Positions 26,476 through 51,302 of a DNA stretch of 61,894 nt are shown piece by piece; the stretch's first letter is position 1; each line of letters starts with the position of its first letter. The notes under the pieces were generated by a model. That model did no database searches. It had not been told where the DNA came from and was given only the letters and a program-made list of their open reading frames with translations. Origin of the DNA: Planctomycetota bacterium (GTDB lineage Bacteria; Planctomycetota; UBA8108; SXIK01); contig JACQVW010000404.1 in NCBI GenBank assembly GCA_016209535.1, positions 1 to 61,894 on the forward strand. The letters are read 5' to 3'. A program made the translations under genes and the position numbers.

Positions 26476-26719
26476 GGGCCTTGGAAGATGCGAGGGCCTG
26501 GCAGGAGACGACGGGAGACCCCGGGTCGCCCTGCAAGGCAGATCTGGTGAATTGGCCATCCCGGAGGGCTCCGGGCGACGGGTTGTGGTCCGGGCGTGCT
26601 TCCACGGCACGCCCGCCTCTGAGACAACGGCCGATCCCGCGGAGAAGTTCCAGACCACGGGGGGCCGGAGTCTCGAGCATGGTAGGCTGGCGCCGGACCG
26701 CGGATCAAGGCCGAGCTCT

Positions 26720-26745
26720 GGAACCTTTCGCGCCCCGGGGCCGTT
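26720..26745 (+). promoter_or_regulatory. candidate autoregulated ECF-type promoter GGAAC-N17-CGTT upstream of the sigma gene at 26793
   Basis: GGAAC 26720-26724 and CGTT 26742-26745, 47 nt before the ATG. Confidence 0.4.
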
Positions 26746-26792
26746 ATGCTTGCAGGAACCGAAAGATTCCCCGCCGGCTTGACGGGAGACGG

Positions 26793-27392
26793 ATGCCCAG
26801 CTCGAGAGAAGAATCCCACGAGTTCGAGGAGGCGATGCTGCCGCATCTCGACGCCGTCTACCGGTTCGCCGTCTACCTCACGGGCAACGAGCCCGACGCC
26901 GAGGACCTCGTTCAGGAGACTTACCACCACGCCATGCGCCGCTTCGACCGCTTCCAGCCCGGCACGAACGCCAGGGCCTGGCTCTTTACCATAGCCAGGA
27001 ACTGCCGCATCGACCGTGCACGGCGGGAGTCCCGGGAGTCCCACTTTGCGGACATCGCGGACCTCGAGGAGACGCTCGACCTCGAGGACCGCAAGGCGAG
27101 CCCCGAGGCGCGCTTGGAGGACTGGGCGAGCCTGTCCATCGACGGCGAGGACGTCTTCTTCGACCTCTTCGGCGACGAGGTGAACCGGTTCCTCGCCGAG
27201 CTGCCCTCCGGTTTCCGGGCCGCCCTCCTCCTCTGCGACGTGGAGGGGCTCAGCTACCGCGAGATCGGCGAGGCGCTCGGCTGCCCCGTGGGCACCGTGC
27301 GCTCGCGGATCGCGAGGGCACGAGAGCACCTGAGGGTCAAGCTCTACGAGTATGCCAAGGGGCTCGGTTTCGTGAAGCACGGGGCGGGTTGA
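26793..27392 (+). CDS. ECF-type RNA polymerase sigma-70 factor
   Basis: 199 aa from ATG 26793 (GGGAGA upstream). Region 2 (EDLVQETYHHAM) and region 4 (LSYREIGEALGCPVGTVRSRIARAREHL). Confidence 0.85.
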   Translation: MPSSREESHEFEEAMLPHLDAVYRFAVYLTGNEPDAEDLVQETYHHAMRRFDRFQPGTNARAWLFTIARNCRIDRARRESRESHFADIADLEETLDLEDRKASPEARLEDWASLSIDGEDVFFDLFGDEVNRFLAELPSGFRAALLLCDVEGLSYREIGEALGCPVGTVRSRIARAREHLRVKLYEYAKGLGFVKHGAG

Positions 27393-27415
27393 TCCCGAGA
27401 GAGAGCGCGGAAGCC

Positions 27416-28228
27416 ATGGACTGCAAGCAAGCCCTCGAGAGGTTGCACGAGCTGGTGGACGGTGAGCTGCCCGGCCTCGCGGAGGAGGCCGTGCGCCAGC
27501 ACCTCGCCTCGTGCCCGGGCTGTTTCCGGACCCACGGAGGCCTCTCGAGCCTGAAGCGGCTCGTCCAGCAGAAGGTCAGGAAGCTCGCGCCGCCCCCGGC
27601 CTTGCTGTCCCGGGTCGTTCGGCGGCTCCGGAGGGGGACCGCGCCAGGCCGGTCGCGTCCCTGGGCGCGTGCTGCTCTGGCGGCAGGGCTGGCCTTCGCG
27701 ACCGTCCTCGGACTCAGCCTGGCGTTCGTCCTGCGGGGACCGAGGCTGGGGCACGCGGAGGCCTCCTCGGCCTGCGCCGATGCCTTCCGGAGCTTGCTCT
27801 CCGGCCTGGGAGCCTCGAGCCGGCCCGAGGGCTGGCAGGCGGACCTCCTCGGGGAGGTCCGGCGGGGGGCGGGGGTCCAGCTCGACCATGTGCCCGAGAT
27901 CCCCAACGCGGCGTACCTCGGCTGGCAGGTGGAGACCGTGAGCAGGGTGAAGACGATCCGCATGGACTTCAGGCCGCTCGAGGGAGCGAGGGACGGGATC
28001 GATGGAAGGAAGGCCGGCGCGGCCCTGATCTCGGTCTTCTTCCTGCCGCTCAAGAGCCTGCACCTGGAGCCTGTGTTCCTCGAGGAGCTCGAGAAGGGCC
28101 ATCCCTGCACGCGCTGCGTCGACATGAGGGACGGAAGCATCTTCTGCTTCCGGTCCCGGGGGTTCCTGCTCACCGTGGTCAGCACGGTGAGCGAGGAGGA
28201 GCTCCTGACGCGACACAGGCCCCGGTGA
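27416..28228 (+). CDS. membrane-spanning anti-sigma factor (zf-HC2)
   Basis: MDCKQALERL...HLASCPGC motif and one TM helix. ATG 27416 is preferred over TTG 27389. Confidence 0.7.
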   Translation: MDCKQALERLHELVDGELPGLAEEAVRQHLASCPGCFRTHGGLSSLKRLVQQKVRKLAPPPALLSRVVRRLRRGTAPGRSRPWARAALAAGLAFATVLGLSLAFVLRGPRLGHAEASSACADAFRSLLSGLGASSRPEGWQADLLGEVRRGAGVQLDHVPEIPNAAYLGWQVETVSRVKTIRMDFRPLEGARDGIDGRKAGAALISVFFLPLKSLHLEPVFLEELEKGHPCTRCVDMRDGSIFCFRSRGFLLTVVSTVSEEELLTRHRPR

Positions 28229-28532: not shown

Positions 28533-28847
28533 ATGCGATACCTCTTCACTGTGGTGGCCCTGGGCGTTCTTGCGAGCGGCTGCCGCGACCCGAAAAAAGT
28601 CGAGGTGCGGGAGCCTGCCGCCCACGGGCACCCTGGCTCCCAGGCGGCCTTGACCTGCCCGGTCTCGGGAGACCCGGCCAGGGAGGACGTCACCTACGTG
28701 CACGAGGGGAGGACGATCCACTTCTGCTGCGCGGACTGCATCGCGCCCTTCAAGAAGGACCCCGGGAAGTACCTGAGCGGGGGCGCGCCCGCAAGGGGCA
28801 AGGCTGCCCCCGGAGGCGCGTCCCGAGAGGGCAGCGGCGCAAAGTGA
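28533..28847 (+). CDS. YHS-domain lipoprotein (metal-binding)
   Basis: Lipobox LASGC. CPVSG...Y..EGRTIHFCCADCIAPFKKDPGKY matches the YHS/TRASH-type pattern. GGAGGAAGGA precedes the ATG. Confidence 0.7.
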   Translation: MRYLFTVVALGVLASGCRDPKKVEVREPAAHGHPGSQAALTCPVSGDPAREDVTYVHEGRTIHFCCADCIAPFKKDPGKYLSGGAPARGKAAPGGASREGSGAK

Positions 28848-28861
28848 GGAGAGCTCGACGG

Positions 28862-30388
28862 ATGTCAGTACCGACCACGCCTCGCACGCCCCTCTCGTGG
28901 CACCTGGTCCTGGCCACAGCCCTCCTGGCCCCTTGCATGGCACGCGGCGACGATCCGGCCGCCAAGGCTCGGCGCGCCATCGCGGATTTCCGCGCCGGCT
29001 TCAAGCCGGAGAAGAGCTACATGCGCCCGCTCGGCGACGAGGGCTGGAAGGCGCGCTTCACCGCGCTCGCGGACCTCGTCGCCTCCGGCGCGGCCTCCAC
29101 GCCGACGCTCCTCGAGGCCCTTGGAGAAGAAGATCCGGAGCTGCGAGTCTTCTCCGCGCAAGCCCTGTCCGTCACGGCCGATCCGCACGCGCTGCCGAGG
29201 CTCCTCGAGGCGGTGGAGAAGGACCCCGAGCCTGCCGTCCGGCTCTATGCCGCGGACGCCCTGGGAACCCTGGACGGCGCCGGGGCCCGCCAGGCCCTCG
29301 AGAAATCGAAGGCCGAGGACAAGAACGGCGACGTGCGGGCTCACGCCGGCTTCGCCCTCGAGCGGAAGGGGCGGGAGGCCCTCGAGGAGGTCCGCAAAGC
29401 GCTCGAGGGCTTCGACCCGAAGCGGCTGGCCGCCGCGAGGCTCGGCGAGCCAGCTCCGGACTTCACCCTACGGTCCCACGACGGCGCCGAGGTCGAGCTC
29501 AGGAGCTTCCGGGGCAAGAAGACCGTCATCCTCGTCTTCATCTACGGCGACACGTGACCCGTCTGCCACAAGCAGCTCGCGCAGTTGCGCGAGAGGAAAG
29601 GCGAGCTGGAGAATCTCGGGGCCCAGGTCCTCGTGATCGATCCGCACGAGTCCTACCGCGTGGCCCACATGCTGCGGAGCTCGGAGCGCGAGGGAGCGGG
29701 GGCCGGCTTCCCCGTGCTCGCCGATGCCGCCGGCGCCGTCAGCGCCTCCTACGGGGTGGCCATGCAGATGCGTATTCACGGGGAGCGCTCCAACCGCCCG
29801 GCGACCTTCGTGATCGACCGGGACGGCGCGATCCGGTTCCAGCAGCTTGCGACGACGTACTCCGACCGGCCTGCGCCCGAGAAGCTCATGGCCCTTGTCC
29901 GCCGCCTGGCGGGCGCTCCCCCGGAGCCGGAGCTCGAGGTGCGCGGCAAGGCGGAGACGCCGCCGGTGCGTCCTGGGCAAGCCGAGGCAGGTTTCACCCG
30001 CCAGCGCTTCCTCGAGGAGGTCTCCCGCTCGAAGATCGGCTACACGGTGGCCACGGTCTTCCACCCCGCATGCCCCGGCTGCCTCACCGAGGCCATCGCG
30101 CTCGCCGGGGTCGAGAAGGCGTGGGGCGAGCTCGGGGTCGGCATCTTGGGGCTCGCCGTGACGGCGCTCGAGGACCCGGTGCGCCGGTTCGTCAAGGCGT
30201 CCAAGGCAGGCTACCGCGTGGAGCTCGCTCCCTGGGCGCTTGAGGCGTTCGGGGTCAGGTTCTTCCCGACCCTGATCATCTTCGACAAGAAGGGCGAGGA
30301 GGTCTTCCGCGCCGCCGAGGACCACGAGGACCCGGTCGGGGCCGCGCGCGAGTTCCTGGAATCGAGGCTGAAGACGCGGGGGTCCTGA
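28862..30388 (+). CDS. candidate selenoprotein: signal peptide, HEAT repeats, redoxin domain with T-U-P-V-C (TGA 29555-29557 read as Sec), second thioredoxin-like domain (CPGC)
   Basis: The ORF stops at TGA exactly where redoxins carry the first Cys of CxxC (VILVFIYGDT*PVCHKQL). The same frame stays open to 30388. A hairpin lies 19 nt downstream. The downstream fragment has no ATG or SD of its own. Confidence 0.6.
29576..29593 (+). promoter_or_regulatory. SECIS-like stem-loop (CUCGCGC-AGUU-GCGCGAG) downstream of the in-frame UGA
   Basis: Perfect 7-bp stem and a 4-nt apical loop containing GU. The loop G is 29 nt 3' of the U of the UGA, within the spacing used for bacterial SECIS models. Confidence 0.4.
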
Positions 30389-30415
30389 TCCCCTCCGACC
30401 CCCGCCCCTTTCCTG

Positions 30416-30453
30416 GAGGACCGGGCGCCCCTCCGCGCCCGGTCCTCTTTCTC
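30416..30453 (+). terminator. intrinsic terminator-like hairpin (13-bp perfect stem GAGGACCGGGCGC / GCGCCCGGTCCTC, loop CCCTCC, then TTTCTCC)
   Basis: Read directly. Lies between the convergent genes ending at 30388 (+) and 30483 (-). Confidence 0.6.
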
Positions 30454-30803
30454 CGGCTCAATCTCGCCGAATCCGCACGGCACTAGGGGGACTCTCTCGC
30501 CTCAAAGCCCGCCTCCGCGACCGCCTTCATGATCGGCGAGGGCGCGGGCGGCCTTTTGGCGTCGAGCGTCAGGACCGCGCGCCCGTCCTGGAAGCTGACG
30601 ACAACCCTCTGGACGCCGGGGATGCCGGCGGGCTTCCTCTCGAGCTGGAGCGCGCAGGCCTCGCAGGTCATCCCGTCGATCCGGAGGGTCAGGACCCTCG
30701 TCGGGCCGGCGGCGGCCTTCTCGACGCGCGGCCGGCTCGAGAGGAGAAGGGGGGCGTAGTACGGGAACGAGGCGGCGGCAAGCGCTGCTGCGGCTGCGAT
30801 CCA
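30426..30803. repeat. direct repeat copy A (about 95% identical to 38128-38529): 3' part of an HMA-domain gene plus about 55 nt downstream
   Basis: Manual alignment of the two segments gives roughly 15 substitutions plus one indel block. Confidence 0.85.
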
Positions 30804-30872
30804 AAGGACAACGGATCCCTGGGCCCTGAGGTTCCAACAACCTGGAACCGACCGGCCTCTCTGAACGTTCAT
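30483..30872 (-). CDS. membrane-anchored heavy-metal-associated (HMA) domain protein, MerP/CopZ-like
   Basis: 129 aa from internal ATG 30872. One TM helix. GMTCEAC metal-binding motif. The C-terminal ~105 aa are near-identical to the end of the 38209-39345 product. Confidence 0.75.
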   Translation of the reverse strand: MNVQRGRSVPGCWNLRAQGSVVLWIAAAAALAAASFPYYAPLLLSSRPRVEKAAAGPTRVLTLRIDGMTCEACALQLERKPAGIPGVQRVVVSFQDGRAVLTLDAKRPPAPSPIMKAVAEAGFEARESP

Positions 30873-31228
30873 CGGATGCCCCTTGTTCGGCCAGACCCGA
30901 TGGGTCCTCGGTGCCAACCAGCCGCGTGGCACCGAGTTCCGAGCGGGGGGGAGCACGGGGAAAACGGTAACGCGTACCCCCAAGTGTGCCTCCTCCCCGC
31001 TTCTCTTGCTGGGGATAGGGCACAGACTGCCATCTACGGCGCGGCCAGAAGGGGTTCCGAGCGAGCCCGAGAGGAGATCCGGACCAACCGGCCCACTCGA
31101 GCTTAAAACGTAGCGGGAAGCAGTCGCGAGTTCTCACTTGTTGCGGATCTCGCGTGGGTGGAGAATGGTCCTCGGTACGCGTTCCCGGGAGCGCCGGGTT
31201 GAAGGCCGCGCTCGGAAGGAGAACCAGG

Positions 31229-33211
31229 ATGGGTCCCGAGGCTATCCCTGGGGCGTGCTGGGCGGCGGTCTGTCTTGACAGGAGAGGCGTCACGATCGTC
31301 TCAGGCCTCCTGTCGGCCCTTGCAATCCCTCTGCTCGCGCTGGGCCAGGTCGAGGAGGCGTGGATCGCTCACTGGCGTCCCCCCTTTGGCGGGGAGGATG
31401 TGCCCACGGATCTGGCGATTGACGCCGCTGGGAACCTCTACGTCGCCGGGACCTCGAGTGGAGACTACTTGGTCCTGAAGTACGACTCGAGCGGGAGACT
31501 GTCGTGGTGTAGGAGCTACGACGGGCCCGGCTTCGGCAACGGCGACGAGAGGCTGACGGCGATGGCGCTCGACCCGGAAGGCAATGTCGTCGTGACGGGG
31601 CAGGCCGCATCGAGCACGGCCCCCGGGTCGTTCGACTACACGACGATCAAGTACTCTCCCGGTGGCGATAAACTCTGGGTCGCCCGGCATCCAGGGCCTT
31701 CCTACGTTGCTCGCGTCGAGCTCGCGGTGGATCGGTCGGGCAACGTGTACGTCGCGGGGATCGCGGGCTCCGGCAGCACGGCAACGGACTTCGTGACCGT
31801 GAAGTACGGCCGCGACGGCAAGCCGCTCTGGGAGGCGCGCTACGATGGGCCCGAGGGGAAGATCGACGAGCCCAAGGCCATCGCCGTGGACGCCGGCGGG
31901 AACGTCCACGTGACGGGGTCGACCACGGAAGGGTTCTACCCCGTCGCTCGCCCGAGGAGCCAGTACGCGACCGTGAAGTATGACCCCGATGGGAATCTGC
32001 TCTGGGAGGCCGTCGCCGCCCATACTGACCCGGACGGGGTCCCTGCTGCCCTCGCGATCGACCGCGAGGGGAGCGTCATCGAGACCGGCCAGGCCGGGAC
32101 GGTGAAGTACGCCGCGGCGGGCAACCTGCTCTGGGCCTTGCCTCTCGGAGAGGGGGGAGCTTCCGGGCAGGCCGTGGCCGTCGACCGTCAAGGCAACGTG
32201 CTCGTGGCGGGGCCCGGTGGCGCGACGAAGTACTCGCCGGACGGAAAGGAGCTCTGGAAAGGCGATGCCGTGAAGGGTGTCCTGAGGCGCGCCCTCGCCC
32301 TCGACCCCGCGGGGGGCGTTTACCTTTCCGGCGTGCTGCCTGGTGTCGGGCCGGGGCTCGCGAAGTATGGGGCGGACGGCACCCTCGCCTGGACCGTCTC
32401 CTACGAGCTGCCGGGCGCGGCCCCGATAGCGCTCAGCGTGGGGCCTGCCGGGAGTGTGTTCACAGCCCTGACCTTTCAGGGTGATTACGGGACGTTCGCA
32501 CACGATCCGGAGGGGAAGCCGCTCTGGTCGGACCGCCACGATGGTCCCGCCGGGAAGGGCCGTGGCACCCAACCCTCGGCCGTCGCCCTGGACCCGCGAG
32601 GCGACATCGTCGTGGCAGGGCAAGCCGGCGGGGACATCGCCACCCTGAAGTACGACGCGGCGGGAAACCAGCTCTGGGTCGCGCGGATCGACAACCCCGA
32701 GGCTACGACCTTGCAGGAGCAGGTGGTCGCCCTCGCGGTCGCTCCCGACGGCAGCGTCCACGTCGCGGGGGAGACCTGGTCGTCCTGTGATTTCACAGGT
32801 TGTCTCGGTCTCGACTACGCCGTCGCGAAGTACGACTCCGCGGGCAAGCTATTGTGGCGGGACACCTACGACGGCCCGGCGGCGCCGAGCGACTCGCCGC
32901 GGGGCATCGCGCTCGACGGCGCGGGCAACGTGTACGTGACGGGAGGATCCATCAACGGTTTCTTGAATGTCGCCTCGGCCACGCTCAAGTATGACCCGGC
33001 CGGAAGCCTCATCTGGGTCGCGCGCCACATCGGAGCTGCCGCTACCGCTCTGGCGGTCGACGAGGTTGGGAACGCCTGGGTCGCCGCGAGCTCGAACCGG
33101 GCGGACGCCGAGTTGCCCGGCGCGGTCTGGAAGTACGATCCGCAAGGCAACCAGCTCTGGATCGCCTACCATGAAACTCGCGTACGCCTAAGTACAGCCG
33201 AATCGTCGTAA
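31229..33211 (+). CDS. SBBP-type beta-propeller repeat protein (probable 5' part of a disrupted SBBP-dockerin gene)
   Basis: GGAAGGAGAA upstream of ATG 31229. Signal-like N-terminus. About 12 repeats of AxD..GN.YV.G......D(Y/F).T.KY...G..LW. Confidence 0.7.
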   Translation: MGPEAIPGACWAAVCLDRRGVTIVSGLLSALAIPLLALGQVEEAWIAHWRPPFGGEDVPTDLAIDAAGNLYVAGTSSGDYLVLKYDSSGRLSWCRSYDGPGFGNGDERLTAMALDPEGNVVVTGQAASSTAPGSFDYTTIKYSPGGDKLWVARHPGPSYVARVELAVDRSGNVYVAGIAGSGSTATDFVTVKYGRDGKPLWEARYDGPEGKIDEPKAIAVDAGGNVHVTGSTTEGFYPVARPRSQYATVKYDPDGNLLWEAVAAHTDPDGVPAALAIDREGSVIETGQAGTVKYAAAGNLLWALPLGEGGASGQAVAVDRQGNVLVAGPGGATKYSPDGKELWKGDAVKGVLRRALALDPAGGVYLSGVLPGVGPGLAKYGADGTLAWTVSYELPGAAPIALSVGPAGSVFTALTFQGDYGTFAHDPEGKPLWSDRHDGPAGKGRGTQPSAVALDPRGDIVVAGQAGGDIATLKYDAAGNQLWVARIDNPEATTLQEQVVALAVAPDGSVHVAGETWSSCDFTGCLGLDYAVAKYDSAGKLLWRDTYDGPAAPSDSPRGIALDGAGNVYVTGGSINGFLNVASATLKYDPAGSLIWVARHIGAAATALAVDEVGNAWVAASSNRADAELPGAVWKYDPQGNQLWIAYHETRVRLSTAESS

Positions 33212-33230
33212 GTCGGTTTCATGTCTCAGG

Positions 33231-34082
33231 GTGCGCGCAGCGCATGGAAACTCACTCCCAGCGAGGCCCCATGCCGTGGCGCTGGACCAGCGCGGCAACG
33301 CGTTCGTGCTGGCCCTACGCTCGGTTTTGGCCGTCCAGGACGACCTGGTCGTGAAGTATGACCCGGACGGCCGGGAGCTCTGGTCGGCCATCGGAACGGC
33401 CTCCTTGGGATTGGAGGTGGATCGAGAAGGGAACGCCTACGTGCTGAGCCTGCCGGACAAGGATACCGCGGTCACGAAGTACAGTGGCGAGGGAAAGGCC
33501 CTCTGGACCGCCTTCCACGATCACGAGCGGGACTGGTTCGCTGCGATGGCTCTGGACCGTGATGGCAACCTCTACGTCGCGGGCTCATCGGCTCATGAGC
33601 ACACGATCCACCACCAGGTTCTCCTCAAGTACAACCCTGAGGGGGACCTGGTCTCGTCGGCGCACCGCGAAGTGCGCGTCTACGGGCGCGTCTCAGATCT
33701 GGCCCTCGGCCCCGAGGGCGACGTCTACGTCGCCGGGTCCGAGGACGGGGAGCTCGCCACGGTCAAGTACGTCCCGACAGGCCTGCGGAACGCGTTCGTC
33801 CGCAGCGACTGCAATGGCAACGGCGATCTCGGCGGAGTCACCGACGCGGTCTTCCTCCTCAGCTACAACTTCCACGGAGGCCCGGAGCCCCTTTGCCTCG
33901 CCGCCTGCGATGCCAACGGGGACGGACAGCTCACCGGTCAGGTGACGGACGCCGTCTATCTCCTCGCCTACAGCTTCCTCGGCGGTCTCGCGCCGCCCGA
34001 CCCGTTCCCAGCTTGCGGGCCAGGCCGCTCGCCAGCGGACGAGGCCCTGGGTTGCAGGCGGGCTCCGGAGGTGTGCCGGTGA
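33231..34082 (+). CDS. SBBP repeats plus C-terminal dockerin-like module (probable 3' part of the same disrupted gene)
   Basis: No signal peptide and a GTG start. The repeat phase continues that of the upstream ORF. C-terminal CNGNGDLGGVTDAVFLLSYNF and CDANGDGQLTGQVTDAVYLLAYSFLGG. Confidence 0.6.
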   Translation: MRAAHGNSLPARPHAVALDQRGNAFVLALRSVLAVQDDLVVKYDPDGRELWSAIGTASLGLEVDREGNAYVLSLPDKDTAVTKYSGEGKALWTAFHDHERDWFAAMALDRDGNLYVAGSSAHEHTIHHQVLLKYNPEGDLVSSAHREVRVYGRVSDLALGPEGDVYVAGSEDGELATVKYVPTGLRNAFVRSDCNGNGDLGGVTDAVFLLSYNFHGGPEPLCLAACDANGDGQLTGQVTDAVYLLAYSFLGGLAPPDPFPACGPGRSPADEALGCRRAPEVCR

Positions 34083-34111
34083 ACACAAGATCTCACGGAA
34101 GGACGACACCC

Positions 34112-36673
34112 ATGAACCCATCCGGGCTCTTTCTGATCTTTCTGGTCTTGCTTTCCAGCGAACCCCTCGGCGCCGCCGACTGCAACGGGAACGGGATCGG
34201 GGACGCCGGGGACATCGCCTCCGGCGCGAGCCCCGACTGCAACTCGAACGGCGTCCCGGACGAGTGCGACCTCGCTCCCACCTTCAGCCTCGATGAGATC
34301 ACGCTGCCTGCCGGGAACAGCCTCTGGGGGATCACGGCAGCGGACCTCGATGGCAACGGGCTCGTGGACCTGGTGGGAGCGGAGCTTCATGGGACGATCT
34401 GGCTCGTGCTCAACTCCCAGGGCGGCGGCCTCACCGTGGTTGACGGCGTTCGGGCTGGAAGCAGCGCCGCCCAGGTCCTGTCGGGGGACCTGGACGGGGA
34501 CGGGGATCAAGACCTGGTGACGCTCGACCCATTCCAACGGAGGCTCCACGTCCTCGAGAACAGCGGGGGCGGGAAGCTCGTGGTTGCCCGGACCCTCGTC
34601 GCGGGAGCCCTGCCGCGCTCCCCGGTCGCGGCGGACCTCGAGGGCGATGGCGACCTGGATCTCGCCGTCGCCAACGGGGCCTCGAATGACCTCTCGCCCG
34701 GCATGTCCAACAGCGTCTCCGTGTTCCTGAACCAGGGCGGCGGCCGCTTCTTGCCGGCCACCCATTACCCTGTCGGCCGGGCTCCGGTGTCGGTGGCGGC
34801 AGGGGACCTGGATGGAGACCGTGACCTGGACCTGGCCACGGCCAACTTCGAGTCCCTCGACGGTTCCGTCCTCTGGAGCCGCGGGGACGGCACGTTCGAG
34901 GAGGCCGTCGCGATCGAGCTCTCGGGCAGGCAGACCGCGGTGGCCGCTGCCGACCTCGACGGCGATGGCCGCGACGAGCTCATCGAGGGCGGCCACAGCG
35001 GACTTGGCGTTTACTCGCGCGCCGCGGACGGCTCTTTCCTCACGGTGGCCGCGGTTCCCCAGAGCTCGGTTGTGGGCCAGGTGGTCCCCGCCGACCTGGA
35101 CCGTGACGGCGACCTCGATCTGGCCCTTAGCCTTTTCGACGGAGTCGTCCTCCTGTTAAACGCCGGCCAAGGGAAGCTCGAAGACCCGATCGTATTGCAG
35201 GCAGGCGCGCGCCCTTCGGCGATCGCGCCGGGAGACCTGGATGGAGACGGCGACCTGGACCTGGGAGTTGCGGACTTCGGCACGAGCCTCATCCCCGTGA
35301 TCTGGAACGAGGGGCAGGGCGCCTTCCGCCTGCGCTCTTCGATCGCCGTGGAAAGCGTCCCCGAGGGCATCGCCGCCGGCGACCTGGACCGCGACGGCAA
35401 ACTGGACCTGGCCGTCGCCGATCGTCTGTCCGGGGCGCTCTCGGTGCTGAGGAGCCTCGGCGGCGCGCTCTTCAGCGAGCCCATGGACTTCAGCGTGGGC
35501 GCTGAGCCCCGCTCCCCCGCGGCGCTCGACCTCGAGGGCGATGGCGACATCGACCTCGTGACCGCAGTGTCCCTCGGCGCCGCGGTCCTCCGCAATGCGG
35601 GCGGCGCGAGCTTCCTCCCGGTCGAGGCCTATCCCACGCCGTCTGAGCCCGTGGCCTTGACCTCCGGAGACCTCGATGGCGACGGCGATCCCGACCTGGC
35701 GACGGCCAACGCTCAAGTGCGGAGCGACCTGCCCACTAACGTGTCGGTCTTCGCCAACGGCGGGAGCGGGAGCTTCGCCCCTGCGCGCAACTACGCCGCG
35801 GGGTCACAGCCCGCCGGGATCGCCGCCGCCGACCTCGATGGCGACCTCGACCTCGATCTCGTGCTGACGGATCGGGAGGGGTTCCTGGTCCTCCAGGGCG
35901 ATGGCACCGGAGCCTTCCCGGCGAGCCTGAGGCTCGTGCATCCCGAGGGGCCGTGGCTGGGCCGCATCCTCGCGGCCGACCTCGATGGAGATGGGAGGGA
36001 GGACCTGGCGACCCTGAGCCAGAAGAAGCTCCTCTACCTGAGGAACGCGGGCGAAGGGAGCTTCGTGGAGACCGCCGCGTTCCGCCTGGGGAGGCTGGCG
36101 GTGGACCTCATCGCGGCCGACCTCGAGGGTGACGGCGACCTGGATCTCCTGGGCCTGAGCTGGAGCCCCGATTTGCTCTGGGTCCTCGCCAACGATGGCG
36201 CCGGGTCTTTGCGCGCCGTGGCCTCGGCCACGGGACGGGCACGCCCGGCGGCCCTGGCGGCAGGCGACTTCGAGGGAGACGGGCGCATCGGCGCCGCCGT
36301 CGCCCACGATGGGGCCGTGCAGTTGCTCAGGCAGGCGGCCCCGCCTGCGCACGAGGACCTGGACGGCGACCGCCTGCTCGACGAGTGCGAGGGGGAGACG
36401 CTCTTCCGCCGCGGCGACGCCAACGCGGACGGCGCGCGCGACATCGCGGACCCGGTCTCCATCCTCGCGTACCTCTTCAACGGCGGGGCCTCGCCGCCGT
36501 GCGAGAAGAGCGCCGACCTGGACGACTCGGGCGGGCTCGACATCACGGACGCGGTGAGGCTGCTCGGGCACCTCTTCCTCGGCGGGCCGCCGGCGCCGGC
36601 GCCGTGGAGCGCCTGCGGCCTCGACCCGACTCGAGACGCGTTGACCTGCAGCGATTTCCCGCCTTGCCCGTAA
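34112..36673 (+). CDS. secreted FG-GAP/VCBS-repeat protein with C-terminal dockerin-like module
   Basis: ATG 34112 with GGAAGGA upstream. Signal peptide. At least 12 repeats of (A/G)DLDGDGDLDL. C-terminal GDANADGARDIAD...DLDDSGGLDITD. Confidence 0.8.
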   Translation: MNPSGLFLIFLVLLSSEPLGAADCNGNGIGDAGDIASGASPDCNSNGVPDECDLAPTFSLDEITLPAGNSLWGITAADLDGNGLVDLVGAELHGTIWLVLNSQGGGLTVVDGVRAGSSAAQVLSGDLDGDGDQDLVTLDPFQRRLHVLENSGGGKLVVARTLVAGALPRSPVAADLEGDGDLDLAVANGASNDLSPGMSNSVSVFLNQGGGRFLPATHYPVGRAPVSVAAGDLDGDRDLDLATANFESLDGSVLWSRGDGTFEEAVAIELSGRQTAVAAADLDGDGRDELIEGGHSGLGVYSRAADGSFLTVAAVPQSSVVGQVVPADLDRDGDLDLALSLFDGVVLLLNAGQGKLEDPIVLQAGARPSAIAPGDLDGDGDLDLGVADFGTSLIPVIWNEGQGAFRLRSSIAVESVPEGIAAGDLDRDGKLDLAVADRLSGALSVLRSLGGALFSEPMDFSVGAEPRSPAALDLEGDGDIDLVTAVSLGAAVLRNAGGASFLPVEAYPTPSEPVALTSGDLDGDGDPDLATANAQVRSDLPTNVSVFANGGSGSFAPARNYAAGSQPAGIAAADLDGDLDLDLVLTDREGFLVLQGDGTGAFPASLRLVHPEGPWLGRILAADLDGDGREDLATLSQKKLLYLRNAGEGSFVETAAFRLGRLAVDLIAADLEGDGDLDLLGLSWSPDLLWVLANDGAGSLRAVASATGRARPAALAAGDFEGDGRIGAAVAHDGAVQLLRQAAPPAHEDLDGDRLLDECEGETLFRRGDANADGARDIADPVSILAYLFNGGASPPCEKSADLDDSGGLDITDAVRLLGHLFLGGPPAPAPWSACGLDPTRDALTCSDFPPCP

Positions 36674-36706
36674 CCCGCGAAAACCTTGAAAGGAGGTCAC
36701 GAACCC

Positions 36707-38095
36707 ATGCGCAGGCTCTTCACCTGGTCCTTGGCTGCGATCGCGATCATCCTCGTCTCTCCCGCCGCCGTCCTCGGGACGTCCTTCGTCCGCGGCGACG
36801 CGAACGTGGACGGGATGGTGGACCTGAGCGACGCCGTGACGGTGCTCGGGGTCCTGTTCCTGGGAACACCCGGCACCGTCCCCTGCCAGGACGCGCTGGA
36901 CGCGGACGACTCGAGCGGCCAGCTCGAGATCACCGACGCCGTCTACCTCCTCCAGTTCCTCTTCTCCGGCGGCAGCCCGCCCCCGGCCCCCTACCCTGAC
37001 TGCGGCCTCGACCCCACCGCGGACGGCGTCACCTGCTACGGGTATCCCCCCTGCGCCGCCAGGCTGTTCGCGCCCCCGACTTCCTACCGGGCCGGCGACG
37101 GCCCCGTCGCCCTTGCCCAGGGCGACCTCGACGGCGATGGCGCGCTGGACCTGGCGGTGGCGGACAGCCCCCGAGGCGCCGCCTCGATCCTCCTCGGCCG
37201 GGGCGATGGGACCTTTGCCAGGGCGGTGAGCTATCCGGCGGGCGCCGAGCCGGGGGCCGTGGCGCTCGGCGACTTGAACGGCGATGGTGCCCTCGATCTC
37301 GTCGCCGCCAACCGCGCCTTCCGCGGCGGGACCCAGGGCTTCTCGGTCCTCCTCGGACAGGGCGATGGCACGTTCAGCGGAGCGGCGACCCGAGCCGCGG
37401 GCAGCCGCCCGGAATCCGCGGCGCTCGGCGACCTGGACCGGGACGGGGCGCTGGACCTCGCCCTGGCGGGCGGGAGCGGCGCCGTCTCGGTGCTGCTCGG
37501 CCGGGGAGACGGGACCTTCGGCGACGCTCGCGACCACCGAGCCGGCGTCCACGCGCGGTCGGCGGCCCTGGGCGACCTCGACCGCGATGGCGTTCCGGAC
37601 CTCGCCGTGGCCGACGTCTCCTCCGTCACGGAGTCGGTCTGGATCCTCCTGGGTCTCGGCGATGGCGACTTCGCGGAGGCGGTGGCCTACCCGGCGCCGG
37701 GCAACCCGTTCGCGGTGGCCGTGGCGGACCTCGACGGGGACGTGGCGCTCGACCTGGCAGTGGCGGGCGGCGGCGCCTGGGTCCTGCTTGGTCGAGGCGA
37801 CGGGACATTCCCTCGGGCGGATCGTTATCCGACTGGCCCGGGCCCGGTGGACGTGGCCGTCGCCGACGTGAGTGGAGACGGCACGCCGGACCTGGCCGTG
37901 GCGAGCCTCGCGAGCAGCACCGTCTCGGTCCTCCTCGGCCGGGGCGACGGGACGTTCGTCGATGCGGTGGGTTACGTGGCCGGCGAACGTCCCGATTCGA
38001 TCGCCGCCGGCGACCTCAACGCGGATGGCACGGCGGACCTGGCCGTGACCAACGCGATCCGCGGGACCGTTTCGCTGCTGCTATCTGTCAGGTGA
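36707..38095 (+). CDS. secreted protein with N-terminal dockerin-like module followed by FG-GAP/VCBS repeats
   Basis: AAGGAGG 10 nt upstream of ATG 36707. Signal peptide. GDANVDGMVDLSD...DADDSSGQLEITD, then 7 GDL(D/N)GDG..DLAV repeats. Confidence 0.8.
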   Translation: MRRLFTWSLAAIAIILVSPAAVLGTSFVRGDANVDGMVDLSDAVTVLGVLFLGTPGTVPCQDALDADDSSGQLEITDAVYLLQFLFSGGSPPPAPYPDCGLDPTADGVTCYGYPPCAARLFAPPTSYRAGDGPVALAQGDLDGDGALDLAVADSPRGAASILLGRGDGTFARAVSYPAGAEPGAVALGDLNGDGALDLVAANRAFRGGTQGFSVLLGQGDGTFSGAATRAAGSRPESAALGDLDRDGALDLALAGGSGAVSVLLGRGDGTFGDARDHRAGVHARSAALGDLDRDGVPDLAVADVSSVTESVWILLGLGDGDFAEAVAYPAPGNPFAVAVADLDGDVALDLAVAGGGAWVLLGRGDGTFPRADRYPTGPGPVDVAVADVSGDGTPDLAVASLASSTVSVLLGRGDGTFVDAVGYVAGERPDSIAAGDLNADGTADLAVTNAIRGTVSLLLSVR

Positions 38096-38127
38096 GGTTC
38101 GCGCTCGCTCAGTCGTCGTCATCATCA

Positions 38128-38529
38128 CGCCCCTCCGCGCCCGGTCCTCTCTTTCCGGCTCAAGCTCGCCGAATCCGCACGGCGCCAAGGGCCTTCTCAT
38201 GGAAGGCCCTAAGGGGACTCTCTCGCCTCAAAGCCAGCATCCGCGACCGCCTTCATGATCAGCGAGGGTGCGGGCGGCCCTTTGGCGTCGAGCGTCAGGA
38301 CCGCGCGCCCCTCCTGGAAGCTGACGACAACCCTCTGGACGCCGAGGATGCCGGCGAGCTTCCTCTCGAGCTGGAGCGCGCAGGCCTCGCAGGTCATCCC
38401 GTCGATCCGGAGGGTCAGGACCCTCGTTGGGCCGGCGGCGGCCTTCTCGACGCGCGGCCTGCTCGAGAGGAGAAGGGGGGCGTAGTACGGGAACGAGGCG
38501 GCGGCAAGCGCTGCCGCCGCCGCGATCCA
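38128..38529. repeat. direct repeat copy B (partner of 30426-30803) with an extra 27-nt palindromic segment at 38184-38210
   Basis: Manual alignment. The insert forms a 9-bp hairpin AGGGCCTTC-TCATG-GAAGGCCCT spanning the stop codon of the 38209 gene. Confidence 0.85.
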
Positions 38530-39345
38530 CAGGAAGACCCGCCGCAATCGATGGGACCGCACTCCCGCCCCAGCGCACGCCCCGCCGGAGCACGCGTTCT
38601 TCCTCCGAGAGCAGGTGAGGTAGAACCCCGCGGCGAGGAGAAGGGGAGCGAGGGCAAGGAAGAGTGGGCGCAGGCGCTCGAAGGTCGCGGCCATCCCTGC
38701 CGCGGAGATCCCGAAGAGCACCAGGAGGACCGGCAGCCAGCAGCACGCCGAGGCGAGGAGGGCCGCGAGGAGAGCGGCTCCGGCCGCAAGGAGCCCGGCG
38801 CCCCCGCGGCGCGAAGTGGCCTCATCGGGCTGGGGTGGCGCGGGCAGCGGAGCGCAGCAATCGTGGCCCTGGTCTGGCACGGAGGGGAGCTGGGAAGGGA
38901 GCGGCTTCGCGCGCCGAGGCCACCGCGATGCCGCGAACGCCTCCTCCACGGCCCTTTGCACGTCGCCCAGGCAGCAGCTCCCCTTGGGATTGAGGACCTC
39001 GCAGCGGCAGAGGCCCGCCTTGACCTTCGCTGTGATCGAGGCCAGGACGGAGCTCTCGCCCGTGCCCTCGATCTCCGCCCGGATGCTCTCGGCAGTGTGG
39101 CCGAAGCAGTAGCAGAGAGGGCGAGGGGAGGTCTTCTCCTTCAGGCCCACGCGGACCTTCAAGGCGCTCCTCGAGAGCGTCCTCCCCCCGGGGGTGAAGT
39201 AGACGACGTCGCAGTCAGGGAGGTCGCAGAAGAGCCACTCCTCCGTCTCGACGCCCCGAGCGTGCTCCTCCTGGACGAGGCTACGCACGGTGACGGAGGG
39301 CACGGGCACGCCGGGCTTCCCGGCGGCGGGGCAGAGAGTCTGCAT
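38209..39345 (-). CDS. three-part metal-handling protein: N-terminal Cys-rich (CopZ-NT / 2Fe-2S-like) domain, MerT-like CC-containing TM region, C-terminal HMA domain
   Basis: 378 aa. CYCFGHT...GLCRCEVLNPKGSCCLGD. TM helix with ASACCWLPVLL. GMTCEAC. Confidence 0.7.
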   Translation of the reverse strand: MQTLCPAAGKPGVPVPSVTVRSLVQEEHARGVETEEWLFCDLPDCDVVYFTPGGRTLSRSALKVRVGLKEKTSPRPLCYCFGHTAESIRAEIEGTGESSVLASITAKVKAGLCRCEVLNPKGSCCLGDVQRAVEEAFAASRWPRRAKPLPSQLPSVPDQGHDCCAPLPAPPQPDEATSRRGGAGLLAAGAALLAALLASACCWLPVLLVLFGISAAGMAATFERLRPLFLALAPLLLAAGFYLTCSRRKNACSGGACAGAGVRSHRLRRVFLWIAAAAALAAASFPYYAPLLLSSRPRVEKAAAGPTRVLTLRIDGMTCEACALQLERKLAGILGVQRVVVSFQEGRAVLTLDAKGPPAPSLIMKAVADAGFEARESP

Positions 39346-39359
39346 CGCGAGCCTCGGCG

Positions 39360-39584
39360 CTACGAGCGCTCGCAGCAGGAGCCCGCTGCGGTCTTGGCTG
39401 CGGACTTGGCCGCCTCAGGGCCCAGAGGGCACCGGTCGGCGCAGACCTCCTCGCCGGTGATCGGGCAGATGATCTTGCCGGGGCAGTCCGGCCTCTCTCC
39501 GCCTGCGAAGCCGAGACCAGAAAGCGCGATTCCCGAGCCGAGGAGGACGGAGAGGGCCACGATCCAAGGGGCGGTCTTCTTCAT
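39360..39584 (-). CDS. small secreted Cys-rich protein
   Basis: 74 aa from ATG 39584. Signal peptide. CPGKIICPITGEEVCADRCP and C-terminal CC. Lies between merR-like and merT-like genes. Confidence 0.5.
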   Translation of the reverse strand: MKKTAPWIVALSVLLGSGIALSGLGFAGGERPDCPGKIICPITGEEVCADRCPLGPEAAKSAAKTAAGSCCERS

Positions 39585-39660
39585 AGCGCACACCTTTCTC
39601 GAAAGGGCTGCTTGGCGCGCGAGGGCACCCTCGCGAGGTCGCCTTCAGCAGTAGGTCCCG

Positions 39661-39692
39661 AGCTTACGGCCTGCACCCGGGTACAAGGTCAA
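39661..39692 (-). promoter_or_regulatory. candidate MerR-type promoter: TTGACC, 20-nt spacer with an imperfect dyad (ACCTTGTAC CCGG GTGCAGG), TAAGCT
   Basis: Read on the minus strand. The -35 overlaps the merR-like stop codon. The over-long 19-20-bp spacer is the hallmark of MerR-family-controlled promoters. Confidence 0.35.
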
Positions 39693-40156
39693 GCGTCTTT
39701 TTTGCCTGTCCGGGAGCCCCGGGTCGGGGGTGGGCTGGCGGGCGACGCCTTCGACGCCTCCTCGAGCGTCCCCAGGACGGCGCAGCGGCCCGACGGGGCG
39801 GCATCCTTGCACATCTCGAGCGCCGAGCGGATGACGGCCCGGAGCCGGCGGAGATCCTTGAGCCTCCCCTCGACCTCCGACAGCCGCGCCTCGAGGAGGT
39901 CCTGCACCTCCGGGCAAGGAGCCAACTTCCCCGCGCGGAGGTCGAGGAGGGCGGCCGCGTCCTCGAGGGTGAGCCCGGTGGCCTGGGCGGCCTTGATGAA
40001 CCGGAGGCGCTCCAGCTCCGGCTCCCCGAAGAGGCGGTAGTTCCCCAGCGACCTGCCTCGAGGCCGCAGGAGGCCGCGCCGCTCGTAGTACCGCACGGTC
40101 GATACAGGCACCTGGGCCCGGGCTGCCAGCTCACCGATGGTGTACCGTTCTTCCAT
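39689..40156 (-). CDS. MerR-family metal-responsive transcriptional regulator
   Basis: 155 aa from internal ATG 40156. YTIGELAARAQVPVSTVRYYERRGLL wHTH, coiled coil, C-terminal Cys residues (C81, C116, C125). Confidence 0.85.
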   Translation of the reverse strand: MEERYTIGELAARAQVPVSTVRYYERRGLLRPRGRSLGNYRLFGEPELERLRFIKAAQATGLTLEDAAALLDLRAGKLAPCPEVQDLLEARLSEVEGRLKDLRRLRAVIRSALEMCKDAAPSGRCAVLGTLEEASKASPASPPPTRGSRTGKKDA

Positions 40157-40176
40157 AGCGCCCGCACGCCTCCCCG

Positions 40177-40890
40177 CTACCGCGTCAGCTCCAGGAAGAT
40201 CTCCTCGAAGTCCTTCTGGCTCGAGGCCTCGCGGAGGCCCTCCACGGAGCCGTCGTAGAGGAGGCGGCCCTTGTGGATGATCCCGATCCTCTCGGCGACC
40301 TCCTCGGCGATGTCGAGGGAGTGCGTCGACATGAAGATCGTGACGCCCTTCCGCGCCTCCTGCCTCAGGAACTCGATGGCGGTACGGATGTTGCGCGGGT
40401 CCAGGCCGACCCAGGGCTCGTCGATGATCACGACCCGCGGCTTGTGGAGGAAGCACGCCGCGAAGGCGAGGCGCTGGCGCATGCCGTGGGAGTAGCCGTC
40501 GATGAGGCGGCCCGCGTCCTCCAGGAGGTCGAAGGTCCCGAGCAGGTCCGCTCCCCGCTCCTCGATCGCCTCGCGCCCCATCCTGTGGAGCCCTCCCACG
40601 AAGTGGAGCAGCTCCCAGCCCGTGAGCTTCCCGTAGAGGAACGGGTGGTCCGGGATGTAGCCGATCCGCGTCTTGGCCTCGACGGGGCTCCACACGACGT
40701 CGATCCCGTCGATGAGGACCGTGCCGGCCGTGGGCCGGAGGAGCCCGGCCATGATCTTCATGGTGGTCGTCTTCCCGGCCCCGTTGGGCCCCAGGAACGT
40801 GAAGAAGACCCCGGGCCCCACCTTCAGGTCCAGGCCGTCGACGGCCCGCTTGCCGTCGTAGGTCTTCACGAGACCCCGGATCTCGATCAT
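40177..40890 (-). CDS. ABC transporter ATP-binding protein
   Basis: Walker A GPNGAGKTT, signature YSHGMRQR, Walker B VVIIDEP. ATG 40890 with GAGGTGAG upstream (alternative ATG 40917). Confidence 0.9.
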   Translation of the reverse strand: MIEIRGLVKTYDGKRAVDGLDLKVGPGVFFTFLGPNGAGKTTTMKIMAGLLRPTAGTVLIDGIDVVWSPVEAKTRIGYIPDHPFLYGKLTGWELLHFVGGLHRMGREAIEERGADLLGTFDLLEDAGRLIDGYSHGMRQRLAFAACFLHKPRVVIIDEPWVGLDPRNIRTAIEFLRQEARKGVTIFMSTHSLDIAEEVAERIGIIHKGRLLYDGSVEGLREASSQKDFEEIFLELTR

Positions 40891-40917: not shown

Positions 40918-41718
40918 CTATTCCTTGAACGGCCTCTGCGCGTTCTCGCGCCGCTCCTTCCGGAGGACGACGTCGCCCAGGGGAGGGCCGAACCTCTGGA
41001 TGAGGACCTCGCTCGCATCGTTCACCCAGGACTTGCCCACGATGCCGCGGAACGTCGTCTCGAGGTAGTGAGCCTCCACGGACATGCCGTCGAGCTCGAT
41101 CACCTCCTTGCGGAGCACCCTCACCGTGGCCACCGAGCGGCTGAGCGTGATGGGGTCGAAGCACGGCACCCGGAGCTCGTCCCCGGCTCGCAGGCCCGCG
41201 ATCGGGAGCGAGGGGACGAGCGCGTCCCCGAGGTGCAGCTCCTCGAGGGGCAGGCTCATCTTGAACGGTGCCGAGGAGCCGACCTTCACGTCCACGAGGA
41301 GCTTGCCCTCGCCCCGCCGGCCCGCGAGCGTCACTGCGGGCTGGCTCTGGAACTTGGCGTCGAGCTGCAGCGAGAGCGGCTTCAGCTCCTTGTCGGCGAC
41401 GAGCGTCCCGTGGATCTCGACGCGCTGGCGGACGCCGAAGACCTCGATCTCGAGGCGGGACTCGAGGGTGGAGTGGACCTCGATCCCCTCGAGGGCGAAG
41501 ACCTTCTCGAAGGTGTACCCCGTGTAGCCTATCTTCCGGCCGCCTCGGTAGATCCCCATCCACCGTTCGCGCAGGAACCCGGTCCCGAGGAACTGCGTCA
41601 CCCCCGACCGGTAGCGGTCGAGGCCCTCGAGCTCGAGCTGGCGCAGGAAGACGAGCGAGTTCATGGCACCCCAGAAGGCGAAGACGGCGGCCGTGAGGAT
41701 CGACCCGAGGTGCTTCAA
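40918..41718 (-). CDS. membrane-anchored beta-rich hypothetical protein (ABC-system accessory?)
   Basis: TTG 41718 preceded by GGAGGAGGG and overlapping the upstream stop (TTGA). N-terminal TM helix. No recognised family. Confidence 0.5.
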   Translation of the reverse strand: MKHLGSILTAAVFAFWGAMNSLVFLRQLELEGLDRYRSGVTQFLGTGFLRERWMGIYRGGRKIGYTGYTFEKVFALEGIEVHSTLESRLEIEVFGVRQRVEIHGTLVADKELKPLSLQLDAKFQSQPAVTLAGRRGEGKLLVDVKVGSSAPFKMSLPLEELHLGDALVPSLPIAGLRAGDELRVPCFDPITLSRSVATVRVLRKEVIELDGMSVEAHYLETTFRGIVGKSWVNDASEVLIQRFGPPLGDVVLRKERRENAQRPFKE

Positions 41719-49665: not shown

Positions 49666-49787
49666 GAGGAAGCGGACGTACCAGCGGATAAGGTTGCGTC
49701 AGCGCCCTATGACCACCCGACTCTTGAAAACCTGAAGCGCTTTCCTATACACCAAAGGAGTCTCAGAGGGATCATGCACCAAGTGGG

Positions 49788-50402
49788 TTAGGACTCACTT
49801 GCCTTTCCTCGCAACAAACGCCACCAAGATAGTAAGGAAGACAATATCGCACACATCCACTCAAGAAAGGCATTTGTCTCTCCAATCAAATCTATCACAA
49901 GCTCGAATACCGGAACATGATAATCCGCTTTTGTGGTTAATGCTCCTGGTAAACGCTCCTTAAGGCTTGGAACTATCACACACGCAACGGATATCACCAT
50001 AAGCCCAACATTGCCACACAGAATAGCCAAATTGAGGTGTCTATTACCAATTCCCATTACTCGATTATGCTCTAACCACTCCTGCGCCTTTTCTCGGTAA
50101 AAAGTCTCTGCCCAACGTCGCTTTCCTACTCCACGCATCCAGCGACGCCAATTCCAAGCAAGGAATGGAAGAAAAGCCCACGAAACAGCCCATAGTTCGT
50201 GAAAGTGCTCAAGCACCTCCGCCCCTCGTCCACGCAGCACACCCATAACAGCAACACAACATGCAAACAAAAGACATACGCAGTATGGAACCACCGCACC
50301 CGTTAGATAAGATCCAACCTTGCCCAGCTTATCCAAAGCAAAAAACAAAAGGAACGCTGGGACTCCTACAATGAAAAAGGCCAACAACTCAACTATATCC
50401 AT
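49788..50402 (-). CDS. orphan polytopic membrane protein encoded in a low-GC (about 44%) island
   Basis: 204 aa with 4-5 hydrophobic helices and AT-rich third codon positions. It is the only long ORF in this segment. No recognisable family. Confidence 0.6.
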   Translation of the reverse strand: MDIVELLAFFIVGVPAFLLFFALDKLGKVGSYLTGAVVPYCVCLLFACCVAVMGVLRGRGAEVLEHFHELWAVSWAFLPFLAWNWRRWMRGVGKRRWAETFYREKAQEWLEHNRVMGIGNRHLNLAILCGNVGLMVISVACVIVPSLKERLPGALTTKADYHVPVFELVIDLIGETNAFLEWMCAILSSLLSWWRLLRGKASES

Positions 50403-50409
50403 CTGCCAC

Positions 50410-51296: not shown

Positions 51297-51302
51297 CACG
51301 CC

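Follow-up and report, generated by a model that had tools for sequence, protein, structure and literature searches.

Introduction

In Escherichia coli K-12, the icd gene extends into the element e14, a C-terminal pseudogene, icdC, lies at the opposite end of that element, and excision gives a functional chimera, as set out in PMC13626634, which cites Hill et al. 1989 (PMC210168). Here we compare with it a locus in an uncultured groundwater Planctomycetota bacterium. The window, by which we mean the whole 61,894-nt stretch analyzed (contig JACQVW010000404.1, positions 1 to 61,894, of GenBank assembly GCA_016209535.1), contains two ∼95% identical direct repeats, copies A and B, on either side of a 7.3-kb block of genes for secreted proteins. 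Copy B is the 3′ end of a 378-aa gene whose product fuses zf_CopZ, MerT, and HMA domains, which we call merTP-type; copy A, at the far end of the block, carries a 129-aa open reading frame (ORF), ORF A, with an HMA domain. We argue that a single insertion into the 3′ end of the merTP-type gene left a long target duplication, with copy A as a decaying or very young ORF, and we put the probability of this reading at roughly 60%.

Both here and at icd (with e14 and also with phage 21), a protein-coding gene has received an insertion in its 3′ end and remains whole because its terminal part exists in two copies; in both, the copy at the insert's far end is only a C-terminal fragment, and the copies differ by few, mostly conservative changes. 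Recombination between the e14 copies is described there as removing the insert and giving a functional chimera, whereas excision at our locus is only inferred. The inserts themselves differ. e14 is a prophage remnant with integrase and excisionase that undergoes SOS-induced site-specific excision, whereas the 7.3-kb insert carries no recombinase or phage genes and is host-like in composition. The repeat here is also longer (385–410 bp) and includes 57–81 nt of 3′ flank. By analogy, the locus would work like the icd/icdC case, and in having no integrase of its own it would stand outside the class of integrase-driven elements.

Nonautonomous elements of the CIME type have direct att repeats around a block without recombination genes, at the 3′ end of an intact gene. 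Our locus shares the direct repeats, the recombinase-less block, and the position at the 3′ end of a gene that stays intact; CIME-type repeats, however, are short att cores for a cognate integrase, whereas here no integrase is linked and the block has no foreign signature. A distance of 13 kb separates the merTP locus from the closest tyrosine recombinase gene (51963–53345), and the two have no repeat in common. A Campbell-type single crossover of a circle carrying a gene fragment predicts the same product, that is, two direct copies of which one completes the gene and the other is a promoterless 3′ fragment; this is, however, a laboratory and plasmid/phage mechanism, and a natural circular donor with this segment beside propeller and FG-GAP genes is hypothetical. 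With mer operons the locus has in common that the 378-aa gene encodes MerT and then an HMA domain with GMTCxxC as in MerP, and that a MerR-family regulator lies upstream. MerT and HMA are here fused, however, with an N-terminal zf_CopZ, and ORF A resembles a membrane-anchored MerP but lies outside the operon. No merA was found in the window.

Results and Discussion

Repeat Boundaries and a Split Hairpin

Self-comparison of the window with blastn aligned 30479–30808 with 38205–38534 (330 nt, 95.2% identity, E = 3e-148) and gave no second near-identical long repeat in the 61.9 kb. A repeat finder returned 300 nt at 96% together with a 71-nt piece of 3′ flank (30426–30496 versus 38128–38198) at 87%, offset by 24 nt. 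Alignment of the copies with their flanks in MAFFT placed an abrupt start of similarity at 30426/38128, a fade-out at ∼30812/38538, and one 24-nt gap in copy A. A sequence-only reading of this DNA had proposed a ∼95% direct repeat, which all three comparisons bear out; its end-to-end, same-orientation alignment of 30426–30803 with 38128–38529 stands as well, except that the fade-out belongs at the coordinates just given. The edge that it called left is correctly positioned, and as the genes of both copies are on the minus strand, this low-coordinate edge is the 3′ flank.

Counted position by position, copies A and B differ by 21 substitutions and one 24-nt indel, and the longest identical run between them is 70 nt. 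Four substitutions fall in the 57-nt 3′ flank, 11 in 30483–30788, and six in the last 24 nt of homology (30789–30812), so that divergence is 3.6% in the core and 25% in that last segment. The indel, which the sequence-only reading had taken for a 27-nt insert at 38184–38210 across the stop codon, proves from MAFFT alignment and folding to be 24 nt long and to lie just 3′ of the stop. It forms a hairpin with a 9-bp stem (38188–38210) that extends over 2 nt of the stop. Neither strand of this piece has a T-run, and no second copy occurs in the window.

The other repeat edge falls within a perfect hairpin downstream of the left-hand neighbor, a gene for a protein with HEAT repeats and an AhpC/TSA-type redoxin domain (HEAT-AhpC; Table 1). 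This hairpin folds far better than chance (z = −4.2, with 0 of 200 shuffles folding as well), and no second copy of it was found in the window. With its first base at 30426, the repeat takes in the final 3 nt of the left arm and so starts near the apex. Of the hairpin, copy B therefore has those 3 nt, the loop, and the right arm, and only beside copy A is the structure complete. The sequence-only reading had already seen the hairpin and the single arm in copy B, but described 13 pairs (30416–30447) with the repeat edge in the loop; there are 14 pairs, and the edge precedes the loop. A simple terminator scan leaves the structure uncalled because its tail, CTTTCTCC, has only four T in eight. We regard it as terminator-like.

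Taken together, these boundaries support the view, already put forward from the sequence, that this is a duplication junction rather than independent conservation: the ends are sharp, the match continues for 57 nt beyond the stop codon into noncoding DNA, and the breakpoint falls on the apex of the hairpin that only copy A has beside it in full. Because a 14-bp complement across the junction cannot be due to chance, the contiguity of the HEAT-AhpC gene, the hairpin, and the repeat must be older than the duplication. The HEAT-AhpC gene would then have been convergent with the ancestral transporter gene, the hairpin being common to both. We speculate that the small hairpin made by the 24-nt indel may replace this lost ancestral structure at the 3′ end of the transporter mRNA.

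Copy B Completes a Conserved Transporter Gene

All three domains of the 378-aa protein are recognized by Pfam (zf_CopZ, E = 1e-14; MerT, E = 1.1e-11; HMA, E = 6.5e-9). The MerT match (PF02411) scores 45.2 bits against a cutoff of 32.9 over residues 190–291, and the first transmembrane (TM) helix contains "ACCWLP" with its Cys pair. Copy B supplies the last 110 codons, which encode the third TM helix, a linker, and the HMA domain, so the repeat boundary, at residues 269–271, lies inside the MerT match. We sought relatives of the transporter in species-representative genomes, JGI metagenomes, and a set of 5.8 billion proteins, where the best are 54–61% identical. More than 100 relatives, mostly from Planctomycetota, Verrucomicrobiota, and Acidobacteriota, have the zf_CopZ-MerT-HMA architecture and align over residues 1–378. 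The order merR, small gene, merTP also recurs: of 160 related loci, 107 have MerR and 20 have the small gene. Since the MerT match crosses the boundary, and since architecture and operon are conserved in relatives, copy B stands in its native gene context. Together with the hairpin, the full-length architecture of this gene polarizes the event as an insertion into an intact gene.

In public records the relatives go under names as different as "cation transporter" and "iron-sulfur cluster-binding metallochaperone", and a literature search on the fused zf_CopZ-MerT-HMA family returned nothing useful. Exact-product look-ups for three window proteins gave no match, though a cluster look-up places proteins of this contig in the same collection. 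Aligned with its relatives, copy B has Leu at the usual Pro of the "..PGV" motif. We also observed, in ∼15 of 146 related loci, a second HMA directly after the first, within a few tens of bases (for example at 9275–9484 in locus L008, 11189–11374 in L019, and 2763–2966 in L099), so that tandem HMA duplication recurs in the merTP-type family. The small operon partner, a 77-aa ORF without a Pfam family, has a signal-like N-terminus and a Cys-rich stretch, CPGKIICPITGEEVCADRCP, and occupies the same position in the 20 related loci counted above. It is a conserved but uncharacterized companion of these transporters.

Copy A Is Most Likely a Displaced Fragment

The sequence-only reading had described 129-aa and 378-aa products, and both are confirmed, the former with an HMA domain and the latter with zf_CopZ, MerT, and HMA. 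In ORF A, the HMA match (PF00403, E = 8.8e-9) covers positions 1–62 of 62, includes GMTCEAC, and scores almost the same as in copy B (36.1 versus 36.5 bits). The public record annotates ORF A as an HMA protein, and it falls in a 90% cluster with the 378-aa protein; a protein search with it returned only itself and one weak match. ORF A has two candidate starts, an ATG at 30872 after AAGGGG and a TTG at 30983 with GGAGGAGG 5 nt before it.

Two properties led us to regard copy A as most likely a displaced, decaying fragment and at best a very young gene. The unique N-terminal part of ORF A is noncoding-like in composition, with a G+C content at third codon positions (GC3) of 0.65–0.74 versus 0.88–0.90 in the coding sequence that is shared or belongs to merTP. 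ORF A also has Pro at a hydrophobic-core position of HMA helix 1 that is Leu (123), Ile (8), or Val (5) in 136 of 136 relatives. The two copies thus differ as a gene and its fragment would: copy B completes a conserved gene, and copy A adjoins the intact hairpin and continues into a new, noncoding-like 5′ part. Copy A does retain the consensus Pro of the "..PGV" motif, where copy B has Leu. A look through RNA runs turned up none that contains this DNA.

Assembly Support

The source of the contig is a groundwater metagenome co-assembly, and we compared it with independent per-run assemblies (k = 31) of two samples, X1 and X2. All four junctions of the repeat copies with their surroundings (Table 1) are present in the per-run assemblies of the two samples with zero mismatches, at a depth of 6–11x that equals that of flanks and block. 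Block and flank depth are likewise equal within each sample (X1, ∼8–10x; X2, ∼6–8x). The deposited contig is unbroken through both copies and for ∼30 kb further to the left and 23 kb to the right. Because no identical run exceeds 70 nt, which is shorter than a read, the copies can be phased by reads and by a large-k (k = 141) assembler. The per-run contigs break or bubble-pop inside the repeat and so do not separate the integrated form from an intact locus plus a separate 7.7-kb molecule; they contain no joint that skips the 7.7 kb or closes a circle, but contigs ending inside the repeat could not show one.

One contig of run X1 over the middle of copy B has the copy-A base (C) at 38428, which corresponds to 30702 in copy A, and copy-B bases at the neighboring variable sites. 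This mixed contig could stem from bubble-popping at k = 31, or the population may contain a conversion variant. In two other groundwater runs, X4 and X5, a related strain (87–97% identity, 2–5x) gave parts of both flanks and no piece of at least 100 nt from 30389–39600, at a coverage and identity too low for this to mean that the block is absent. The closest genomes available for a presence/absence comparison are at ∼60% protein identity.

Proposed Origin and Competing Explanations

The ancestral order would have been the HEAT-AhpC gene on the plus strand, the common hairpin, and the convergent transporter gene on the minus strand. In one event, 7.3 kb comprising the spacer and the secreted SBBP/FG-GAP genes (30813–38127) would have been placed in the 3′ end of the transporter gene, leaving on both sides some 385 bp, with the hairpin apex at one end, the stop codon inside, and the beginning of the third TM helix at the other end. 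This doubling could have come about by duplication of the target stretch, or by Campbell-style integration of incoming DNA that brought its own copy. Copy B would have kept the transporter whole by serving as its 3′ end, and copy A, still next to the original hairpin, would be a C-terminal fragment that took its start codon and ∼20 initial codons from noncoding-like DNA. RecA-type recombination between the copies could remove exactly the block, and the product would be merTP in chimeric but intact form, next to a complete hairpin. Exchange between the repeats had been suggested from the sequence as a route by which the block could be gained or lost, and this seems plausible: the substrate is 330–385 bp at 95% identity, with identical runs of up to 70 nt, and so clearly exceeds the shortest length that RecA-dependent exchange needs. 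Neither the SBBP/FG-GAP block nor a distant second copy was found beside merTP in any of the 160 related loci, so the arrangement is lineage-specific. An origin by tandem duplication plus deletion was set aside, as it takes at least three steps and the block would have to recur to the right of the operon, where self-comparison shows no such copy.

Several observations weigh against the single-insertion reading. By Pfam, the 7.3-kb block has SBBP and FG-GAP families only, with no integrase, transposase, or other mobility gene; a tRNA search found no tRNA nearby, and the G+C content of the block (0.66–0.76, against ∼0.70 for the window) gives no sign of foreign DNA. The ancestral adjacency of the HEAT-AhpC and transporter genes is deduced solely from the hairpin, and 0 of 160 related loci show it. 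The cluster of differences at the right end, where 6 of 24 nt differ and five of the changes are synonymous, at third codon positions, is not expected from a single recent event. Three of these third-position changes lie within a (GCN)5 Ala tract, and the uneven divergence has several possible sources: older, selected divergence may survive where a later conversion tract ended, the triplet tract may have undergone templated slippage combined with breakpoint decay, or the differences may be older than the event, the incoming DNA having brought its own copy from a related lineage. ORF A, moreover, has an intact frame, a plausible ribosome-binding site (GGAGGAGG or AAGGGG), and a positive N-terminus before the TM helix. 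Across the copies, there are 10 synonymous and 7 nonsynonymous differences, with a ratio of nonsynonymous to synonymous rates (dN/dS) of 0.26 (p = 0.005 versus neutrality), a bias that could mean that both copies are under selection. By our own binomial estimate, one neutral and one constrained copy give p ∼0.12, which is nonsignificant, and the core without the 24-nt cluster, at 5 synonymous to 6 nonsynonymous, is indistinguishable from relaxed selection.

The coding evidence also bears on gene birth by partial duplication, in which ORF A would be a functional MerP-like gene with a start and short N-terminus recruited from the spacer and the repeat would be kept by selection. The structural origin may be the same as that proposed above, the one difference being what copy A is now. 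Because the third TM helix starts at the repeat boundary, copy A encodes a full TM and HMA unit with GMTCEAC, a signal-anchor and predicted periplasmic domain that match the needs of a stand-alone MerP-like metallochaperone. The matching HMA scores, the intact frame with ribosome-binding-like sequences before both candidate starts, the low dN/dS, the retained "..PGV" Pro that copy B has lost, and the recurrence of extra HMA modules in the family (∼15 of 146 loci) all speak for it, as does the placing of five of the six differences at the TM-coding end on third codon positions. The unique N-terminal codons are, however, noncoding in GC3 where coding parts reach ∼0.9, the Pro in HMA helix 1 replaces a residue that is Leu, Ile, or Val in every relative compared, and the core substitutions are as under relaxed selection. 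The three Ala-codon changes can be explained by templated slippage without selection, ORF A lies outside the merR-controlled operon on the far side of the insert, and chance open frames persist in 70% G+C DNA, where many spurious ORFs overlap. On this balance, a functional ORF A seems unlikely, though it is the possibility that we would take most seriously after an insertion with decay. In a broader form, the locus would represent gene fission or birth, with the TM-anchor and HMA module copied out and given a start codon and N-terminus de novo from noncoding DNA, as a separate membrane-anchored MerP-like metallochaperone, or else a recombinase-less cassette that targets merTP 3′ ends and brings a replacement 3′ end; we hold this to be a little more doubtful still.

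Far less probable is that two old paralogues, a stand-alone TM-HMA gene and merTP, flanked the block and had ∼360 bp homogenized by recent gene conversion. The heterogeneous divergence (core versus last 24 nt), with the edge mostly synonymous like an old selected one, would fit this, as would the X1 contig with the A-type base at 38428 in a B-type path. Homology, however, stops fully 24 nt beyond the putative tract with no weaker similarity on either side, identity continues 57 nt past the stop and ends inside a hairpin with no homology beyond it to act as an anchor, and a half hairpin at copy B with the whole only at copy A is what a breakpoint leaves, not conversion between independent 3′ regions; bubble-popping at k = 31 would be expected to give the mixed contig. 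We give marginally less credence again to an assembly artefact or other configuration, in which the HMA segment caused a mis-join and the true state is an uninterrupted locus with the block elsewhere, in the genome of another strain or on a circle. The metagenomic co-assembly as source, the breaks of the per-run assemblies in the repeat with flanks left unphased, and the fact that the four junctions are also expected in an "excised" configuration are in keeping with it. Against this, the 21 differences and the 24-nt indel leave no identical run above 70 nt, so that the copies are phasable, and the contig is unbroken beyond the repeats; junction contigs occur in two independent samples with zero mismatches and flank-like depth, and the half of the copy-A hairpin in copy B is a real breakpoint relating the copies in any case. 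A single insertion into the 3′ end of the merTP-type gene remains the reading that we prefer.

Table 1. Coordinates of the repeats, the genes and structures around them, and the assembly junctions in the window
Feature	Coordinates	Strand	Basis or remark
HEAT-repeat and AhpC/TSA-redoxin gene, left neighbor	28883–30388	+	Pfam; in-frame TGA at 29555
Perfect 14-bp hairpin	30415–30448	+	27 nt after HEAT-AhpC stop; loop 30429–30434, then CTTTCTCC
Repeat copy A	30426–30812	−	57 nt of 3′ flank (30426–30482) and last 110 codons of merTP-type gene, probably displaced
ORF A, 129 aa	30483–30872	−	length per public annotation; first 20 codons (30813–30872) unique
Spacer "x", left end of insert, 416 nt	30813–31228		composition (∼65% G+C), Pfam
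SBBP beta-propeller repeat gene with signal peptide and C-terminal dockerin-like pair	31154–34082	+	frameshift-split: 31154–33211, 33231–34082
Secreted FG-GAP/VCBS repeat protein, 854 aa, with C-terminal dockerin-like pair	34109–36673	+	FG-GAP_3, E = 2.6e-81
Secreted FG-GAP repeat protein, 469 aa	36686–38095	+	FG-GAP_3, E = 5.6e-50; ends 32 nt before copy B
Repeat copy B	38128–38538	−	native 3′ end (residues ∼269–378) and 81-nt 3′ flank of 378-aa gene
24-nt indel, copy B only	38185–38208		directly 3′ of TAG stop (38209–38211)
zf_CopZ, MerT, and HMA fusion gene (merTP-type), 378 aa	38209–39345	−	Pfam; last gene of merR/small Cys protein/merTP operon
77-aa Cys-rich small protein, operon partner	39360–39593	−	between merR and merTP
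MerR-family regulator, operon partner	39689–40180	−	Pfam; order recurs in relatives
Junction left flank/copy A	29603–30615		per-run contigs
Junction copy A/spacer	30586–31307		per-run contigs
Junction block/copy B	37429–38341		per-run contigs
Junction copy B/rest of merTP	38485–38626		per-run contigs

The 7.3-kb Block

The block opens with a spacer that shows no codon-position bias and no Pfam match in any frame and that presumably carries its promoter or promoters. Between 33175 and 33235, one SBBP repeat unit (KYDPQGNQLWIAYHE ... HAVALDQRGNAFV) runs across the gap between two ORFs in different frames, and per-run contigs of both samples also break at 33192–33230. Because a single repeat unit spans the break, we treat the two SBBP ORFs as one frameshifted gene, which may be a pseudogene or may reflect a sequencing or assembly error. 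The four genes counted in the sequence-only reading are therefore more likely three. Its "dockerin" assignment falls below threshold: the short repeat pairs match Dockerin_1 (PF00404) at E = 0.1 and 13.3 bits against a cutoff of 22.9, and an EF-hand at E = 0.054. Going by their sequences, these Ca-binding-like pairs should be called dockerin-like only. Similar modules occur at 24–25 kb of the window, which argues that the dockerin-like genes are native to this genome.

The block does not have the profile of a foreign genomic island, having host-like G+C, no tRNA or mobility gene at its border, and no Rfam family in or beside it. Nor does it contain an integrase or excisionase of its own, the sole integrase in the window being the tyrosine recombinase gene named above. 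That gene, on the plus strand (Phage_integrase, E = 1.7e-14), adjoins the only low-G+C stretch of the window (49000–52000, 0.61–0.64 versus ∼0.70), and together they may be a separate integrated element.

Neighboring Genes

Within the HEAT-AhpC gene, the TGA at 29555–29557 is in frame and occupies the first position of the redox motif ("VFIYGDT-TGA-PVC", equivalent to UxxC). Positions 2–34 of the Pfam AhpC-TSA profile match before this codon and 48–123 after it, and a 7-bp hairpin, CTCGCGC-AGTT-GCGCGAG, starts 19 nt downstream of it. Public annotation splits the gene and has a 267-aa product from 29585. We suggest that the HEAT-AhpC product is a candidate selenocysteine protein.

Just to the left of this gene lie an ECF (extracytoplasmic function) sigma factor (26472–27392), a zf-HC2 anti-sigma factor (27389–28228), and a YHS/TRASH-type metal-binding lipoprotein (28533–28847). 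With the merR operon, these genes look like one metal/redox-stress neighborhood split by the block. On the minus strand, ORFs at 40918–42996 and 41715–43814 are in different frames and overlap by ∼1.3 kb, with a Pfam match only in the second (ABC_tran_2, E = 3.6e-93); this pair may be another frameshift or an over-long spurious ORF.

Conclusions

The phenomenon is familiar from icd/icdC and e14, and what the present locus adds is a fresh instance in an unstudied lineage, which opens no new question otherwise. It provides a polarized example, in uncultured groundwater Planctomycetota, of an insertion at the 3′ end of a gene that leaves the gene intact and a long direct repeat behind, and the split hairpin fixes which of the junctions are ancestral. 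For annotators it counsels caution, as what is recorded as a 129-aa "HMA protein" is probably only part of a gene. Were copy A functional, the locus would offer a small, dated instance of domain fission in which the N-terminus arose de novo. The repeat makes the 7.3-kb set of secreted-protein genes potentially unstable, and the locus is a likely site of strain-level presence/absence variation.

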